A DNA stretch of 64,000 nt from Saccostrea cucullata (Eukaryota), in the NCBI RefSeq assembly GCF_032062105.1, contig NW_026938238.1:62001-126000 (forward strand), in the 5' to 3' direction. A program made the position numbers and the translations under genes. Under the pieces are notes generated by a model, which had not been told where the DNA came from, did not search any database, and was given only the letters and a program-made list of their open reading frames with translations. Numbering within the stretch: position 1 is the first letter of the stretch; the number at the start of each line of letters is the position of its first letter. Below are positions 4,716-64,000 of the stretch, piece after piece.

Positions 4716-6127
4716 ATGTCGTTTTCCTTGATATTTACTCTGATTGCACTTCCCCTGTTTTACACACAAGGTGAATATAGAGAAGTATGGTGAGAAATTG
4801 AGGTTGATGCTTATAAAATGCAAAAAAATATTCAACTTGCCAAAAATATTTATTCATAATTATTTTTCCTTTTTAGTCAATGCAGATTGTAGGGGGAAAG
4901 CTGATATTATAATAGCAGTTCCAGGCTCTGTGAATATTCCTGGAGAAGAATTTTTCCCTTTTGAAACATTTTTACACATGCTTGTGGACTATTTTGTGTT
5001 AGATGAGAATAACGTTAATATTGGTTTCGTGTTGTACGGAAATGAACCAACAATTGTGAGTCATCCTCAGCCTTTCAAAGACCAGGCTCAGACAAATACG
5101 AGAGCCACTCTTCTCACTCAGAGGGAAAACTACATGAACGTTATCGGCTCTCCACCAAATGTTGCCAAAGCTTTGACTTTAATGCGTGCCATGTTTCAAA
5201 ACCCCAGTGGTTACCCTATGGAACGACCTCGCCCTGGTGTAATGAAAATTGGAGTTATTTTTACGTGGGGTGCACAGCCTGTTGAAGCTTTCGATGACGT
5301 GATCAGGGTTGCTGATGATCTTCGAATGGATGGTGTCACTATGTACGCCGTAGGAAGAAGTCCGATTGGTCCCGAGTTTGCTAGACTAGCCACAGACGAA
5401 TGCAAGCTTTTTAGCATGGGGAATTTCCAGGAAGGTCTGCCCAGTGTGCTTCCATACCTTGGAAGCAGCATCTGTACACGTAAGTGGTCACGTGCTTAAA
5501 TTAAAATATGAAAAAAAAAGAATTCACTCTTCCGAATGGTGAAATCCTGTATGGATTACTTACTAATTCAGATACCCTTCATCTTTCAGATATGGATCCA
5601 ATGATTAATGCATCTTCCATCAACTGTTTTCCTAGTAAGTATATACAATTATACTTAAGAAATTTTTAGAAAAAAAAATACTCAATATAATATAATTTCA
5701 TGCCAAAATGGGTATAGTTGTATTCAGTTGATAACTGAGGAATGCGTGATGTCTTACAGAGTTTTGGAAGCCAAGTCCAAATCCCCCTATCATCTGCCCC
5801 TCTATGAGTGAGATTTTCCAGGATCCCTACAATTGTGCCTACTACTACAAGTGCGACCTGAGTGTTGCCAGGAGAGAGCGATGTCCTTCCAATATGTTGT
5901 TTGACAACTTCATTCGCACCTGTAACTACAAGGACGCAGTCACGTGCTACTCCAGGATGACGTGCCCGGAACCTAACGGACTTTTCCCTCATCCTGAATC
6001 CTGTAACAAATTTATGAACTGCTTTAATGGAATTCCGTACGTCCAAGAATGTCCTCCAAATCTCTATTTCAATGAAAGAACCAAACTTTGTGATGACAGA
6101 CAAAATGTGCAGTGCCGTTTACAATAA
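4716..6127 (+). CDS. Secreted VWA-domain + two chitin-binding type-2 (peritrophin-A) domain protein, Pif97/BMSP-like matrix protein, ~356 aa
   Basis: Exons 4716-4770, 4877-5479, 5590-5634, 5760-6127. All introns are GT-AG, phases are consistent, total 1071 nt. Signal peptide MSFSLIFTLIALPLFYTQVNA. VWA fold: C-x3-ADIII..., IGFVLYG, RPGVMKIGVIFTWG, GVTMYAVG. Two 6-Cys CBM14 repeats: DPYNCAYYYKC...CPSNMLFD and HPESCNKFMNC...CPPNLYFN. Confidence 0.88.
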
Positions 6128-14890: not shown

Positions 14891-17800
14891 ATTCTGTATT
14901 AAATCATTTCAATGTTTACCCTGTTTATAGTTTTTTCTTAAATGTATAGTTTTGGTCTTTTTGTTCTGCTGTATGAAATCATCACAAAAAATGATTCCAA
15001 GGACAAGGATTTTTATCCACCCTGTCGGGTTGTCCAGTTGGCCATTAGCCTTAGTTAGGAACATAGACCCATTCAGGAAAGTTGACAACTTCCATCCATG
15101 TAAATTATTATGGTGGTTAAATTGCTAAGGAAGTATAATATTTTTAGTCTACAAATGCATTTGACACAACTCGTCCAGTAAAAGTACTTGCCATATTAAT
15201 TAATAAGTTCTAAAAATAAGAATGATGTATGGACATTGGCTGATTGACTCTGTCATAGGAGAGGGGGAAAAACCCATGCAAAATATGATTATCTCCCCAC
15301 CCCCTCCAACTAGGCAATATATGTACTATACCAACACAAAAATTGCTTGTAGGCTGAGGGTGCGACATCACCTTGACCTGGGGTCAATGTCACTGAGAAA
15401 AAAAATTACAAATGTGTTTCTAAAGGAGAAACACCAAAGTTCATACTTCACATAGAAATTACTTTTTACCTATTGATATGTCATGACCTTGAATCAAGGA
15501 TATTTGGGCAAGATCAAGGCACTGGCAGATCCTGCAAACAAACTACAAATTCTTGTGTATTGATGACGTAAATGCAAGAAAAGGGCAATATAGGGGTACA
15601 TTAAACCCATCTAGAAATAATATATGCTTATTGGTAGTTACAACCTTTGACCCTGTTATTTGTAACTTCAATGGAAAAGATGTGTCTGTAGACTACACTT
15701 GTGTGTTGTGATACATCGATCTTCCTCCCAAGATGCATCAACTGGACAGGTTTCAGTGTACAAGATCCAGAAATTACCTGGATGTGTTTAACCCATTGTT
15801 TCAAAAGAGACCAAGTTGATCTTCTATAGGTTTGCTACACACTTTCCTAACAAAATGCATTATGTATCGATATAAAATACAAATGAACTAAGTAACCTTA
15901 TTTTGTACCATTCCCTAAAAAATGCATCAACTAACAAGGTTTGAGGCTCAGTGTGCAATACAAGTACATAACCAAATGGTGTGTCTTAATCAAGGTACCA
16001 AATGACCTAAGTACTAGAGACCTCTGTAACCTCAAAGAACAATGAAAATACATTTATCAAACAGATTTTTTTTTATTTTCATCACTTTCTGTACACGTGG
16101 CATATTGCACATAGAAATAAAGAATCAACAATGGTCAGAAAACTCACAGTCATGCTCACAATAATAGCACATATAATGTGGGAAATATTTCGTCACATTC
16201 AGAGACTCAGATTTACCATGGCAGATACAAGTCATTTCACTTTAATTACTGTATGTAATTTTGTGTGAAATACCATACTAAGAGTAGTTTAAACTTTTTT
16301 TCAATGCAGACAGAGAAAAATAATGTTGCGATTGTGTATACACTACATTTTTACAACAGACATCAATTGTTCATGAATATTTTAATTTAAAAAAATATCC
16401 GTCATGAAGATCTTAATAAAAAATTTGAGATCAAATACTCATGAGAATCGGGAATTTTATCTGTACTAAATATAAAGTTACTTTGACTTGTTAATGTTTT
16501 TAATATCTCAACAATTAATACTGTTAATACTGGAAATTTTCTTACAAGCATTTGTTCTAAAACGTATTTTTCACTTTAGACCATTTTTTTTAAAATCATG
16601 GCATAACAGCGACATCAAAATTTGGTTTAAAAATACAAGATTTCAAACAATAGTGTTGACATTTCAATATGAGGAATACTGTAGAATAAAGTGTAGAAGA
16701 GTAATGCCCAGTCTATAATTGAATAATAAAAAGATGTAACTAAGACTTAAATGACTGACAAAGTCATACAGACCAGTAGAGTGACACACACACATAATAA
16801 AATAGCCTAAAAATTTCTCGACTTTTGAATGTGTAGTGAAAATGTGATCTGCATCTGGTACACACTTTCATAGTTTTTACATTTGACTTTCATTTCATTT
16901 TAACTTATCAGAAAACTTGTATATTAATCCAAAATAATTTTTTTTTTATTTGATAGTTCTCTGGACAAATTTGAGTCATACTAGAGAGAAACATGTAAAT
17001 TGCAAGTTTAACAAATTTATTACAGTTAGAGTTAAGTAAATTCACAGGTCCCCAGGACTTAACCATTGTAACCAAGTTTTACTGTATCATGTCAAATAAT
17101 TGTGCCAACAGATTGATTCAATGATTACTATAAAGTGTCCTCTCATACTAAAACTTCTATACTCAGACATTTAATAACATCTCAACATATCAATCCATTA
17201 TTCAATTTTTAAGTCCATTGTAACAAAGATGTAAATGATTGTAGATGCACATGACACACACACTCTATTCCTCTACTTATATGAGGTATCACAGCATGCT
17301 TTTAAGTGTGCACTCTTCATTCCTATCAATGTTGAGAAAAAGCAGCTACTGGAATAGGACCCCCCCTCCACCCACCCCCCCTATCAATCTCCCACAGACA
17401 TATAAATCAACATGGAGGTATCTTCAATCACACATGCCCAGACAAGTCTGATATTGCATGATGGGTACAAAGTTATGAAACACTACATGCATAAATAATG
17501 ACGATGACGGACAAAGTAAAGCATTGCTTTGCTGTCGCAAGGAAAACAGTCAACTGGTGAGCTATCTAGACATTCCTATATGTAGCTAAAAATTTAATTT
17601 CAGTCACCATCCTTCAGATAATCAGAAATACAAAGTTCAATACATGTATAATAAAAAAAAAAAGGACATTTAACCAGTTCTTAAATTCCAAAATCCACAA
17701 GACTTTGAAATCTGCAATGTCAATGGTAGCTAAGATCTGACTGTCTATAATACATGTATCAATTTAACTGCATTACTGTAATAGCCCCTTTTCCAATTTT

Positions 17801-19126
17801 CTATGTAATATATCTGTACATAGATATTTGCAATTAAGCATAAATCACTGATGCATAAATCCATTTTCTACAATGATATTCTCCCCTCCAGTAATGCCTT
17901 CGAAATATTTCCCTTTGGTAGATGCACAATTTATATGTTTATTTCTATTCTTGCAAACAAGTTACGCTTATTGATATAGGCAGACTGGCAAGCCCCGTTT
18001 CCAATTTTTTTTAACCCAGGGTGAACATTGAACTTTTTTACTCTGTTTCATGAAGGATGATGTTGAATAAGATGGCTTACTGAATTTTGCGGTCAATATT
18101 TTGAATTTGTTAAAAAAAGAAAGAAATTAAAATACATTTATCTTAGGATAAAAAATAAGAAAAATGATATGTACAAATAATAAACTATATGGTAATAAAT
18201 AATAACACAGTCATTATGCTTTATCCAGTGTCTACATATAATAATATAAAAATGTTTCCATGGTGATTTCTATAAGACTACTGACCCTAGAGAAGAATGA
18301 ATGGTAGGTCTACATTATAATGATAAAAATGCACATCGTGAAGTCATTCAGAATTATCTACCACTCCCTATACATTGCTAATTAATGGTCATGGCGCAAT
18401 ATATCACATTTGCATAAAGGTTTTAAATGTTCTGCAGACATGCTCTTTGGAAGAGCAGTGTCGTATGAAAATTAAGGAATGTCATTGTAAAGCACTTTCA
18501 TTCTCTCATGTCCACATGTTCATCCTTGTCATAATACAAAATAAATATTTTAAGTTTGAAAAATAAACTAAAATTTTTGTTTTACATACATGTATAACAA
18601 AGTTTCTAATAAAAAAAAAAGCAGCAACAAAGGATTTGGAAAAAAAGAACCTCATATTTGGACAGAGTAAAAGGGTGAAACCTTTTCAAAAAAATATTAC
18701 AATTCAATTAAAAATTTAAATCAACATCTGTTATATTTACTTTGAGCATTTTTCACATGTAAAATGCACACTTTTCTCACACAACTCTGGAATGGAATCG
18801 GATGAGGGTGAAAAGCATGAATTAAATAAATAACAATCATTGAACATACACAAAATAAAAGCACTTAGGAGTCCATATCTGTCATGTCCCTACAAGTTGT
18901 GCTTGATTCACATTCTTTATCTTTATAGAACATCAGGCATGAAAAAGGACCACATTTGGGAGAAAAAAAAGTTTGGTCATATTTAGATTGGGTACAAGAA
19001 TTAATTAATAAACTTTCTTTTGGAATTCCTCCTGTGTCTTTTTGAACCTGATGACCTGGATAACTACTAGACTGTGTCAGATATTAATTATCACAGTATA
19101 AGAAAGACGTGGTTCCAGATGAGTGA

Positions 19127-22100
19127 TTAGGCGGTGAACACAGAGTCCACGCTCCGAGACAGGTGGACAGGATGGGAGGGGCTCCGCACCAGACGTTTCT
19201 TTGGGAGCCTCTCTATCGCCTTCAGGAGGTGCTTAAATTGTGGTCTGTCGTCCGGCTGGTACGTCCAACAGATCATCAGAACATCCTGTGAAAGGGAAGT
19301 CAATCTGATTATACTAAAGCAAATGGAAATAACTCTAAAAGATTTTTTAAATTAGATTTTATTTTGAAAATAAACTAATATAAGAATTTTCAATATCATC
19401 ATTAACATTTCAAATTCTTCTTAGTGTGTAATGGCTTTTACAATTTATAGAATTTGAAGTAAATCATTGTCATATTTATCTACAAAATATTTCCCTGTAG
19501 AAAATCTATATGTTTAAGGCCAAAAAAAAAAATATCTCTTTGCCTCTGATCCTTTTTATTGAAAATCATCATTTTTTAGGGTTTTGTACAATGTAAAAAG
19601 CTGCCTCATCATGTTTTAGGGGCAATAAAAAAGAAAAAAATGCCTCCCTCCCTCATCATCATTTTAAAAATATATACATGTATATTTAGAATCTATCCTG
19701 CAGTTTTATTTCAAAGTCCACCAAAATATTTCTAATAGAGCAAAGAAAATAAAAAGAAGATAAATGCAATCATGTCATAAAATGCAAAATCATTCTTTTA
19801 ATTTGATACATTTTAAAACCTGTATGATCCAAGAGCAACTTTGATTAAGAGCATTTTAACTGCAATATTGTAGCCCTCTCTGATTTTTTTATGGTAAGAG
19901 TATATTATCTTTGTTCTTAGCTTCTGAAACTTTCATTATATTGGCATACTGGAAATTTAGCACATAACTGTAAGCTATGGTCTAGAAGAAGAGCCATCTT
20001 CAATGTTTACATACATGATGTGCATATTTTCAAATTGGTTGATTTCATATCGAAGCCTTATTGTCAGTGTGTATTAAAGGTGCATGAAGATAATAAACTT
20101 TCACAAAAAACCTATACTAAATACTTTTCAAAGCTGGATTTCTTTGGGTTTATTAAGCTAATTCACACCAACTTTGAATTAAGCACAATTACACTCTGTA
20201 TTCCTTTAAAGAAAAAGTAATAATGTTGTGTTCTATTGTGAACCACCATCAATGTTCTTCTTCCAGAGTTTCCTCAGGCTGAATTATATGTAATAGAGAA
20301 TTTGAACATCTGTGCCCTTTTACACTGCAGACTTATATATAACCCATATATGGGTAAAATATCAAAAAAGAACAAATCTAAATGAAATATTAAAGCACAA
20401 GTCAATGCACATAGCAGGAAAAAATTACAAGATACCACATCAAACTAATTGGTAATACAAAACGTGCTTACACATATAATATATAAGTGATGTCAGCAAT
20501 TTAAAATCACACAAGTATAAAATCAAAGGCTACACTACAAAATGCAAAATAAACAGACATGGAAAGTTAGAATAAAAGAAAAAATACTGCAGATCTGATG
20601 CTCTGCAGTAAAATATGGTGGAAGTTAGAAAATCTCTACCCCCTTCCTGCTACATGTAACAGTATCTAACTTTTCAAGGTATATACACTCCACACATTTT
20701 GGTGGGGTAGGAAGTTCGGAGATTAAGGGCATGCAGCATGCTTTAGACTGTAGGGTGGGTTACATGACACCGTATTAGTCCCTACCCTAGGGGCCTGGCA
20801 CCCAGGACCACTGGATCAGAGGAACGCCTATAATTAAAGGACTTGGGCGGAATCCTAGAGGACAGTTTGCGAATGTGTTCAAACAACTGATTAAATTCGG
20901 GTCTATCAGAGTGTTTGAACGACCAGCAATAGCAGAAAATATCCTGTAAAGGAGAAAATGATTAGTGTGAAGATTGACCTGCTTCACATTGGTCAAATGT
21001 GTCACCTGTGTTCTATTCCTTCCATTCCTCTTACCTATGTCCTGTGTAGTTAGGATAGCCGTAAATGTAATTTTACTTTGCTTTTTGATCAATATGAAAT
21101 GAAGTTAAACTGCATGTATACTAATTTATTGAAATATGTGTTCCTATTATTCTTGAGAAAAAAGGCTTTTTACACATAATCCTTGTACACTGTGTGTGTA
21201 CTCTGAAACAATATCTTCTGATGAAAAGTTACAGCCAAGACTGAAGTACTTGTGAAACTGGCATACATCACAAATATAGCGCAGTGCATGCAAAACTGTT
21301 GTCACAAATAATGCAAATGGGGAAAATATGAAAGCACTGTCTCTGCAGGTGGAAAATTAAGTCAGATGTCATGGTCATGGGGAAAACAGTCATTATGTTA
21401 TGAAAATGTCTTGTCACAGATAATGCATATGTAAAAATATCTCTCATCAGAAGCAAACATTGACATGTAGGTCAAACTTCAAGACCACTGTCACAAGATA
21501 AAATACGATAGTATTCCTGAAAAAATGTTTTACCTGTGAAATAATAAAACCTGATTTTCCCACATTCAAAATTTATTACCACTGAATGTAATTTTTTTTA
21601 TCAAAGTAGGTCAAACTTTAAGGTCACTGAAACAAATGTGGAAATGCCTTGTCACATGTAATGCAAGTGTGAAATATAAAAGCCTTTTCTCTTCTTATTC
21701 AAAACCTATACCAATTTCCCCATGCTTTAGTGAAAGCGGGGGACAATGATTAATATGAGGAATAAAATAAGCCAATCGCACACTACCAGTACACAGGTGA
21801 CACAAATCTTAACTGCATTTCTGTTTAAACAATTCTCAATGCAATATATTACTAGCAAGCAGCACAAGAAAAACAAAAAATGTGCTCAAAATTGTGAAAT
21901 AAACAACAAATTATCCACACGTTTATGAGTACATAGCAATTACATTTAATAGCCAATATATATGGAATATGTTATTAAATTATGCTACAAAATGTATATG
22001 TAAGTATGCAAAAGTATCACAGATTTGACAAAGCTACACAAATATTGCCTCTGTAAAGACTAAATTCACATTATATATATACACACACTATTCAAAGCTG

Positions 22101-25100
22101 CAGCAAAACAAGTTGATGATGCAGAAAAATACTGACCTTGACCTCTTTTGATGCCATCACACTCCCCAGAGATTGTTTGATCCCTCTCCCTACTTGCCAT
22201 ATGATGCACTCTGGTGCTAAGTTTCTGAAAGGCCAATCACCTACTAGCAGCTCATACCAAATTGTGCTGTGGAAAAAAAGTTGTTTTTTTTTTTTAGAGA
22301 ATATTACTTAATTAGGAGACCAAAATTTACACATGTACATGTAGCTTAACTTTTCACCAGTAATTGGGGTCAGTTCCATGTATGCAACTGTTATTGAAAG
22401 TCTAATAAATAACAAGTACCTGTATGTGATTCAAAAAGTTTAAATGAAATATTTACTAAACTTTAGCTTGTTTAATTCTCAAAAGTACATACCCAAATGC
22501 GTAAACATCGGACTTTTCAGAGAATGGTAGGTCCACTTTGGATCTCCCGGAATGAAGACACCTGATGACCTCAGGGGAGAGGTAACACAACCAGCCCGGG
22601 GAAATGTGGAGGCAGTCACCCTTCCTGTTATATATTTATGATCCAATCAAATTCCGTAACACACTGTGTATCATTTAACAATTCAATCAATTTTTTGTAG
22701 CATATAATGTATTTATAATCGAATCAAATTTCATGTAACATAATTATCCAAACATATGCTATAACGTTTACATAGAAAACTTAAAGTGCACATTTTAATT
22801 CTTTTATCGGAGAAATTCAAAAGGTAATCAGTTATATGTGAAAAAAATGAATACATGTAACCTGAACTTTTTATATACAGAAATGTGAATATCTATGAAT
22901 AGAAATAATACCTGTTGCCATGGCATATTTTGGTGACACTAAATAATCCAAAATCTGTAATTACAACTTTGCCATTTTCCAAGAAAATGTTCTTTGTTTT
23001 TAAGTCTTTATGGATTATTCCTCTTGCATGTAGATAACCCATGCCCTAAATAAAAATTGATAAAGTTCTGTGTCTCTTTCCTTGATATTGTCATTTTTTT
23101 TTTAAAGAAGCACAAAAGTTGAAGCCCAAGAATGTCAATAAAATCACAGTAATTAGAATATCTCTGAGGATTCAAGATCTTAAATGAGATTCATATTTAT
23201 GGACTATTACTCAAACTTAACCCACAAAAACCTACCTGTGCTATTTGTTGAGCTATCAGAATTGTTTTGTTCATGTTGAATTTTTCCCGAGCATTCGTCC
23301 GGACATAGGTATAGAGTGTTTGACCACTGCAGTAACTGTCAAAACAAAACAAAAAAGACATCAGAATCAGTACTTATTTCCCACCCATGCACAAACAACC
23401 TGGTATATTTGTTAAAGGATTTTTCCTTACAATAAACTGTTGTACAGATTTCTACATTGGTGTTTAGTTTACCTGGTAACTATGGCAAGCTGGGGTGGTT
23501 TCATACAAGCACCCATAAACAGTAACAGGTTTTCATGCCTTGTGTTCTTCAACATTGCCACCTTAAATTAAGAGATGAATTAAATATTTTTTTTGTTCCT
23601 GATCATCATCTTAGCAACAAATATTGAAAAGCTTTCTAGATATAAGTTTGTTGACAGCTACTTGAAAAGCTGGCTAAATATAACTTTTGAGAACTACTTT
23701 CTTGAAATATTTTGATCACTGATCCTTCAAATTCTGTAACAGTAATCCATTATCTCACAATTTTCTTACCTACTCTTTCCTGAGACTTTTTTTTTACCTC
23801 AAGCTCAAATATTAAATAATTGCAATCAGAGCTTATTTATTTGAATTACCTTGAATACGAATGTTATTGCTATGCTTAGTTATTTGATTTGATTTACCTC
23901 AAGTTTAAATGCTGAGAGCTGAGCTTGGTTGTTATCAGAGTCAGGGTCCATATGTAACATTTTAATGGCTACTTGACCATGCCATGTACCCCTAAAAACA
24001 AACAGACTAAACTGAAAATCTATGACTTATATGAATTAGAAAATAGGGCTGGTAATCAAATACAGAACTGCAAACTGGTTAACCGCAAGACATTCTGAAT
24101 GATTAACCTATTTGTTATATCAAAATACACATTTTGTAGACATTCTTTTTTCAATTAAATTCAATTAAATTCAATTTATAGACCCCCCCCCCCAAATCCA
24201 ACCGAGTAATCGGTCAACGGGTCATAAATTGCTATCCCTAGAATATAACAATCTATAAAATTTTAAAAGTTACATATGTTTATAAGTTTTTTTGTGAAGT
24301 AGAGTGTACATCTAAATCAGAGCAAAAAAAACCCTGATATCCAAGGGCAAAAAACGTGTATTTAAGTTTAATATTTGACTCCACAATACTTACTTGTATA
24401 CTGTTCCAAATCGACCTGTTCCAATTTTATCCATTAAATTTAACTGTTCAAATGGGATATCCCATTCTTTTAACGTTACAGAAAGCTGCAAATGAATATC
24501 AATAAACAGTTTATAAATCTATGCACACAAACCTAAATATCTTTAATAAGATATATTTAATTTTGGTGTAGCAAGTTAAAAACTGGCATAGCTTTCAGAA
24601 AAAAAAAACTGAATCAGATATTCCAGTGCATACACAAATCTACACATATTCTTATTAACTATGAACATGATGAAGTTTTTCTAAATTCCATTAAGCAGTA
24701 TGAGAGTAGTTGTGCTGAAAAGAATTAGACTGACAGAATGATGGAATGTTTCTTATTTACTTTCCTATGACTTTTTGTGGTGAGATATATATTATACATA
24801 CACTGTTGCCGCGATCCCAGTGGTGAATAATGCCATCCTGACTGTCCATAGAATCCTCTCTCTCAAGAGTCTTCTCGGACGCATTGCTCTACAATATACA
24901 AAGTATTGAGTAAATACTTTACAACATACAAAATACAGAAAGATTATTCTACAACACACAGTTAAATTAAGAGTAAATACTCTAAAACACAAAAAATACA
25001 GAGTAAACACTCTACAGCATACAAAGACAAAATATGGAATAAAAACATCAAACATTAATTATATTTGTGTATTAATGCTAAGACTTGTGTTCAGATGAAT

Positions 25101-63451: not shown

Positions 63452-64000
63452 TTACTTTAATATTTTGTCAAGCAACCATTTCGATCGAATAACTGCCATA
63501 ATTCTCCTTGGTGGTGAATAGTACAAGTTCTTGACATAATTTGGTTGATAGGAAGTCCATAGATCGTAAATGGCGTTGAAAAGTTCATCTGGAGTTTTTA
63601 TGTTTCGGGCAGTGTTTTGAAGATAATTTTTTATGCGAAGCCATATATTTTCTATTATGTTTGAATCTGGTGACTGGACAGGCCATGTCAAACAGTTTAT
63701 ATTATTGTCACGTTTATATTCTTCAATAATTCGTGTGCGATGCACAGGGGCATTATCGTCCTGAAACCGGTAAGTTCTGTTAGAGAAATGACGGGCTAAA
63801 ACAGACCAGAGATTGTTTTCCAGGATTTCTTTGTACTTTTATACAGCATTTATATTTCTATCAACATTGCTCAAAGTTCCGATGCCATGCCATGTTATAC
63901 AACTCCATATCATTATTGACACTCGCTTCTTAGGTCGAGGACACATGCACTGCGGACGGTAAGCCTCATTTGCAGATTGGCATACATATACACGATTATT
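63452..64000 (-). mobile_element. Tc1-family transposase C-terminus (DD34E), runs off window end
   Basis: FQDDNAPVH...WPVQSPDSNIIENIW, with 34 residues between the second catalytic D and E. A frameshift lies upstream. Confidence 0.9.

Follow-up and report, generated by a model that had tools for sequence, protein, structure and literature searches.

The closest described counterpart of the arrangement reported here is found in the PMCA pumps ATP2B1-4, in which a C-terminal exon has been tandemly duplicated, the first copy runs into the second in another reading frame, and a transcript uses either one end or the other; as described there, the exchanged segment is the tail of a calcium pump and the design is ancient and vertebrate-wide (bioRxiv 10.64898/2026.05.28.727796). 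More generally, exchanges of the C-terminus between homologous exons have been catalogued in human (PMC8373072, PMC4465641), and the former source describes 77 human cases derived from tandem exon duplication, the kinase PRKCB among them, and puts these homologous swaps down to alternative poly(A) use. Frameshifting penultimate cassettes, which are of non-triplet length, place a stop in the last exon or adjacent to it and escape nonsense-mediated decay (NMD), are described as common (ITGA6 A/B in PMC5930856; PMC7392665; PMC13247117), although the tails they exchange are reported to be mostly non-homologous or disordered. Splicing is also described to alter the C-terminus of RAF-family proteins, both in BRAF-ref, -X1 and -X2, which differ in their 3′ UTR (PMC5410044), and in B-KSR1, which is described as truncated (PMC4050188).

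Here we describe a KSR gene of the oyster Saccostrea cuccullata in which the last coding exon is present as two homologous copies. Our reading of the locus as a whole, which we consider probable, is that inclusion of the upstream copy as a cassette yields a minor isoform with a new predicted kinase end and the same 3′ UTR. Compared with PMCA, the exchange concerns the end of the C-lobe in a (pseudo)kinase of the RAF family, is known so far from oysters only and involves an overlap of 10 nt; in contrast to the catalogued human swaps, a cassette that shifts the frame and shares its UTR is better supported here, and unlike ITGA6-type cassettes, this one would rebuild part of a folded domain. The BRAF variants and B-KSR1 are not known to alter the kinase helices or the 14-3-3 site, whereas in the oyster gene helices H and I and the predicted 14-3-3 site are themselves exchanged.

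The architecture is already known from PMCA, and RefSeq lists the isoforms as predicted models; what the locus adds is a RAF-family kinase that uses a PMCA-like duplicated-exon frameshift design. Our search, which covered openly accessible main texts, yielded no publication that describes a duplicated exon in KSR or this event, and the term KSR does not occur in the main text of PMC8373072, the supplement of which could list RAF-family cases. The role of the C-terminal 14-3-3 site of KSR is described as disputed (PMC10265822), and we found no described role for the tail beyond it, which hardly varies among invertebrate KSRs. Because tail and predicted 14-3-3 site are exchanged together in a natural, conserved swap, in an otherwise identical protein and UTR, both questions become testable. 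The reach of the finding is limited by its confinement to oysters so far, by the minor share of the isoform and by its presence in automated annotation.

An oyster KSR gene whose last coding exon is present twice

The KSR gene occupies positions 17600..41654 of the minus strand and is complete in the window (the whole 64,000-nucleotide stretch of DNA that was analysed), with its ATG at 41654 and a 3′ UTR that, from RNA depth and a contig, extends at least to 17600, the edge of the 17600-23100 region searched with RNA data. The RefSeq S. cuccullata proteins P0079, P0081, P0082, P0084 and P0085 align to its successive exons and leave a single junction residue unmatched. Pfam places an N-terminal CC-SAM (PF20406 and PF13543, above cut-off) ahead of C1 (PF00130) and kinase (PF07714) domains, the layout of the KSR1/2 type, and fly KSR (8bw9) and human KSR1/2 outrank BRAF as matches to the oyster kinase. 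The last constitutive coding exon (22137..22266, minus strand, ending ...SKEVK) is supported by RefSeq mapping and by a junction that reads place at 22136-19284, and has a phase-0 donor at 22137. A search of the species' own genome revealed no second copy of either this preceding exon or the proximal exon described below.

Downstream of donor 22137 lie two exons, both on the minus strand and each preceded by a pyrimidine-rich AG acceptor (at 20943 and 19285). The proximal copy is most likely a 158-nt (3n+2) exon at 20786..20943 that encodes alternative helices H and I and the tail motif RRSSDP (20829-20812). The distal copy, whose coding part spans 19127..19285 and is followed by the shared 3′ UTR, carries RSPSHP (19186-19169), an SRSVDS tail and a stop at 19129-19127. 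As originally predicted, both copies begin in phase 0, encode kinase subdomain XI (CW-x5-RP-x-F-xx-L is present in each), carry these tail motifs and are paralogous. Their homology is beyond chance: 17 of 48 residues are identical (35%; E 1e-9), and an HMM built from 55 ancestral-type last exons recovers all five proximal exons (E about 1e-11). With either exon the match to the Pfam kinase profile extends as far as position 257 of 258 (177.5 vs 181.1 bits). The distal exon is of the ancestral type, with 96% identity to S. echinata and 60-76% to most other invertebrate KSRs.

Adjacent homologous exons with the same start position and phase are the pattern of C-terminal substitution derived from tandem exon duplication. 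One or the other copy would be translated from each transcript, given that the skip junction is found in reads, that models of both kinds exist in six species and that inclusion of the proximal exon closes the distal reading frame. We find support for the original prediction that the kinase C-lobe has two paralogous ends, which are used alternatively and differ in their candidate 14-3-3 motifs. A RAF origin of the proximal exon is not supported: the exon has no RAF among its 31 PDB matches at E<=10 and matches KSR2 best. An origin from KSR3 was also considered and rejected, since the KSR3-like paralog divides this region over two exons. RSPSHP, which had been called KSR-type, is the invertebrate KSR motif, but human KSR1 and KSR2 both have RRLSHP; the proposed analogy between the oyster isoforms and vertebrate KSR1/KSR2 diversity fails for the tail site, the motif being common to both human paralogs.

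We infer that the last coding exon was duplicated in an oyster ancestor, after which the upstream copy would have diverged and a weak donor at its end would have come into use. Skipping of the proximal exon would then produce the common ancestral ending, whereas after its inclusion translation would enter the distal exon in the +1 frame and stop at once; because of this stop, the two endings would be mutually exclusive at the protein level while sharing a single poly(A) region. Inclusion would replace RSPSHP by the PKA-type RRSSDP, move the predicted phospho-Ser from 31 to 36 residues from the subdomain XI Cys and remove the ancient SRS[AV][ED]S tail and, judging by homology, the swap would alter the kinase that primes 14-3-3 binding and the pairing of KSR with RAF. 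Of these proposals the splicing model itself, a frameshifting 158-nt cassette ahead of the distal exon with one poly(A) region, is the one we hold with high confidence. Whether the predicted isoforms really differ in 14-3-3 or RAF regulation appears to us evenly balanced.

The same gene contains a second duplicated-exon switch in its C1 domain, where exons A (30930..31010, 81 nt) and B (30494..30580, 87 nt; both minus strand) are homologous and are used either-or in RefSeq models of Ostrea edulis, Crassostrea virginica and Magallana gigas. The eight combinations predicted from this pair, the two endings and cassette exon 6 (33646..33708, minus strand, 63 nt) all exist as the O. edulis RefSeq models X1-X8, which are predictions and say nothing on coupling.

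Predicted consequences for the kinase end

The proximal exon retains C6, W7, an aromatic residue at position 9, R14, P15, F17, L20 and L27. In helix H, L3 is replaced by F and M4 by C, R or G, at positions where ancestral tails have L in 45 of 47 and M in 40 of 47 cases, and most of the helix I surface and the whole tail differ as well. By homology, the swap would keep the core of the C-lobe and change the surface of helix H. AlphaFold2 models of both isoforms draw helices H and I, with a pTM of 0.31 and large parts of the kinase domain below pLDDT 50; the ending scores 65-70 in the distal and 28-48 in the proximal form, figures to be read with the alignment, in which 34 of 40 rows are of the distal type, and with the low values over the whole proximal C-lobe.

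Both tails contain a predicted 14-3-3 site, in which a Ser closely following helix I has R at -3 and P at +2, and this candidate Ser lies 31 (distal) or 36 (proximal) residues after the subdomain XI Cys. The HMMER match between P0085 and BRAF ends at 840 and 731, respectively, so that S838 of the oyster protein falls on BRAF S729 (PMC10265822) if the end is gapless. The register of the proximal tail is ambiguous: a profile HMM aligns RRSSDP with RSPSHP, whereas a gapless scan gives 16.5 at offset -5 (RSPSHP) and 18.7 at offset +4 (SRSAES). RRSSDP may therefore descend from the SRSAES element rather than from the canonical site. A tail of the form S[RK]S[AVY][ED] is present in 48 of 49 distinct non-oyster invertebrate KSR tails and is absent as such from the proximal ending. 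In worm Raf a distal tail segment is described as a negative regulator (bioRxiv 10.1101/2024.07.16.603803), and the KSR segment might act likewise.

RRxS is a PKA-type consensus, and an acidic residue at +1 of the motif is a RAF feature. The PKA-type RRxS is common to RRSSDP and to RRLSHP of human KSR1/2, and motifs of KSR3 are described as having the acidic +1 too (PMC10322840). S838 of mouse KSR1 is described as a mode I 14-3-3 site made by PKA, and in the same source S838A barely altered the association of KSR1 with BRAF, contrary to an earlier study cited there (PMC10265822). One may tentatively imagine that the oyster switch rewires the input to a RAF-activating scaffold, with a RAF-like RRSSDP on a longer linker, the helix H surface swapped and a vertebrate-like, cAMP-gated site acquired independently; we would favour this specific version only at low odds. 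In that case the two natural isoforms would form a clean pair for probing the C-terminal 14-3-3 site and the unexplained SRSAES tail of KSR.

An alternative to which we give similarly little credence is that the splice is real but serves to dampen the pathway: the KSR made by inclusion would be less stable or signal poorly, and would either reduce the amount of the ancestral form or sequester MEK or RAF. The likelihoods we attach to our overall reading and to this one do not sum to one, because the splicing model is the same in both. Such a dampening role would fit the loss from the proximal ending of a tail kept in 48 of the 49 non-oyster sequences, the departures in helix H from residues that ancestral tails largely share (L3 to F; M4 to C, R or G), and the possible loss of the canonical Ser that register +4 would mean. 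A BRAF isoform with another C-terminus is reported to be degraded (PMC5410044). In the fly complex CNK contacts KSR through the G-H linker and helix H, the latter belonging to the largest CNK contact, and Y925D breaks binding (PMC11257983). Counting from M902, K903 and R913 on 8bw9 places Y925 at exon position 9, where the proximal exon has F or Y, as do 48 of 49 other tails, and we therefore rejected the idea that this residue abolishes CNK docking. Against a dampener, the proximal exon matches the ancestral one in conservation and RRSSDP is present in 24 of 24 proteins, a pattern that suggests a specific binding role rather than simple loss.

The end of the proximal exon and its expression

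The original prediction of the proximal exon as a last exon closed by its own stop was not confirmed. The stop in question, TAG at 20784-20782, overlaps a phase-2 donor after 20786, a weak 5′ splice site (20780..20788, minus strand; AGG/GTAGGG, the slash marking the exon end) whose GTAG makes the in-frame TAG. The exon ends CTA GG/GTAGGG in the window, and joining 20786 to 19285 yields G-M-F-stop, MF-stop being the +1 frame of the first 10 bases of the distal exon, so that the start of the terminal exon (19276..19285) would be dual-coding. The ending LG-MF is found in 21 of the 24 full-length oyster proteins with the proximal exon, from S. cuccullata, S. echinata, O. edulis, C. virginica, M. 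gigas and M. angulata; the other three are older gigas models that end at LG, and two of these accessions end in MF in version.2. Position 19285 is the only place downstream of 20785 in the window that reads AG/N-ATG-TTY-stop; an MF found by exact matching at 20309 was rejected, there being no stop after it. The donor scores 3.7 bits, against 3.5-11.5 for the 22 other donors of the gene, and ranks 9th of the 79 GT sites in 20943-19286. As 158 is not a multiple of 3 and the new stop (19278-19276) lies within the last exon, the exon has the length and stop position of an NMD-escaping, non-triplet penultimate cassette; for a stop in the last exon NMD is not expected, a principle described in PMC7392665.

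RNA evidence comes from three oligo-dT raw-read runs of one study (X22, X23 and X24) and a contig set (X1), together 4 of the 24 listed runs, examined over 17600-23100. Most of the reads are only 90-95% alike to the window and, on that sequence divergence, come from another population. The junction 22137-19285, which skips the proximal exon, is carried by 8, 4 and 2 reads in X22, X23 and X24 and by one X1 contig. Depth over the proximal exon (bin 20728-20911) is 1.7, 1.1 and 2.3 in the three runs, or 0.34, 0.17 and 0.43 of that over the upstream exon, with a pooled ratio of 0.31 that is an upper bound. Immediately downstream depth falls to 0, 0 and 0.11 (20544-20727) and to 0 in all three (20360-20543), followed by 1.6, 0 and 0 in 20176-20359, and the distal 3′ UTR has coverage as far as 17600, where the region ends. 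None of the four runs listed a junction that enters or leaves the proximal exon, at a listing threshold of three reads, and the X1 contig over this exon is unspliced. All 14 listed Logan-derived oyster KSR proteins that include a tail have the distal ending; of the largest cluster, 15 of 34 members were listed. Direct observation covers the two copies and their conservation, the junction that skips the proximal exon and RNA on the upstream copy; the gene models and RNA depth suggest that 20786 is spliced to 19285, which would put a stop 10 nt after the start of the last exon and so allow escape from NMD. The depth fits a minor cassette that lacks its own UTR and does not prove the splice. Interspersed repeats at 19440-19990 and 21324-21647, in the introns flanking the cassette, attract many reads from elsewhere.

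These data bear on the possibility, proposed originally, that the copies are true alternative last exons with different 3′ UTRs, the proximal one ending at the TAG at 20782 with its own intronic 3′ UTR and poly(A) site. The in-frame stop directly after LG is consistent with this, being found here, in the three older gigas models and in P0151, an unnamed genomic ORF that matches the C. virginica exon, as are the weakness of the donor, AATAAA signals at 20154, 19710, 19560 and 19363, and the depth of 1.6 in 20176-20359 in X22. However, the stop arises by construction, because a phase-2 GTAG donor creates it, and 21 of 24 models splice on; the first AATAAA lies 630 nt beyond the TAG, and oligo-dT coverage of 20360-20727 is almost nil in all three runs. 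At these low read counts we did not find a stop, 3′ UTR and poly(A) site belonging to each exon, and a minor poly(A) form is possible. We regard alternative last exons as unlikely, and the protein would differ from that of the preferred cassette model by two residues only.

The proximal exon is 81-98% conserved over six oyster species in four genera, with 52/53 residues identical in S. echinata, 50/53 in O. edulis, 44/54 in C. virginica and 44/53 in M. gigas/angulata; the distal exon has 50, 46, 45 and 45 of 52 in the same order. The constitutive part of the kinase is more conserved than both endings (244-248 of 251 identical). Both endings are intact across oysters, without stops or frameshifts, and RRSSDP is the same in each of the 24 full-length proteins of the proximal type. 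The duplicate might instead be decaying, its inclusion being leaky and without function; the minor share of the isoform, the weak donor, the isoform's absence from the 14 listed Logan proteins and its being seen only in Ostreidae would point that way. We hold this to be very improbable given an open frame, 81-98% identity over four genera against 35% to the sister exon, and retention of the fold-core residues.

Searches for the proximal exon outside Ostreidae, in collections that hide isoforms, returned six matches, all from oysters; a second homology search gave 28 matches and no other proximal-type tail, and a scan of 50% clusters gave two oyster-type matches and two repetitive chance matches. 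Among 103 non-oyster proteins, 11 of them without a tail, none of the 92 motif-bearing tails is of the proximal type. The bivalves that these searches returned by name were few (Pinctada, Tegillarca and Solemya). The exon has thus been seen only in oysters, and its absence elsewhere does not follow from such collections. A metagenome scan for the exon DNA found two loci, both rejected as chance matches in unrelated ORFs. The first 21 bases past the distal stop (19126-19106, minus strand) translate to SLIWNHV, which is also the read-through end of Logan protein P0070 from a Crassostrea-type cluster, which suggests that the first part of the 3′ UTR is conserved across genera.

Other features of the window and genome

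Three introns of the KSR gene open with minisatellites, with units of 27, 67 and 36 nt (regions 25748-26129, 31912-32274, 35165-35440 and 35627-35802). Because the unit contains the exon end and 5′ splice site, the donor is repeated many times in these introns. One exon has two donors 18 nt apart (26124 and 26142, minus strand), both used in S. cuccullata models, and the outer donor of the pair sits at the start of the 27-nt minisatellite.

Elsewhere in the genome there is a second KSR-like gene (L005 and L006, G000:C14951:486300-497838), with the altered catalytic motifs HKRLTT and DYG, an HSVSEP tail and a C-lobe end split over two exons. It is probably KSR3, a label that follows the description in PMC10322840.

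The window also contains four further ORFs of note. On the plus strand are one at 4744-6124, which we take to encode a VWA plus chitin-binding protein, and one at 43385-47380, presumably a replication factor C subunit; on the minus strand, 56287-56895 looks like a LINE reverse-transcriptase fragment and 63455-63838 like a fragment of a Tc1-type transposase.
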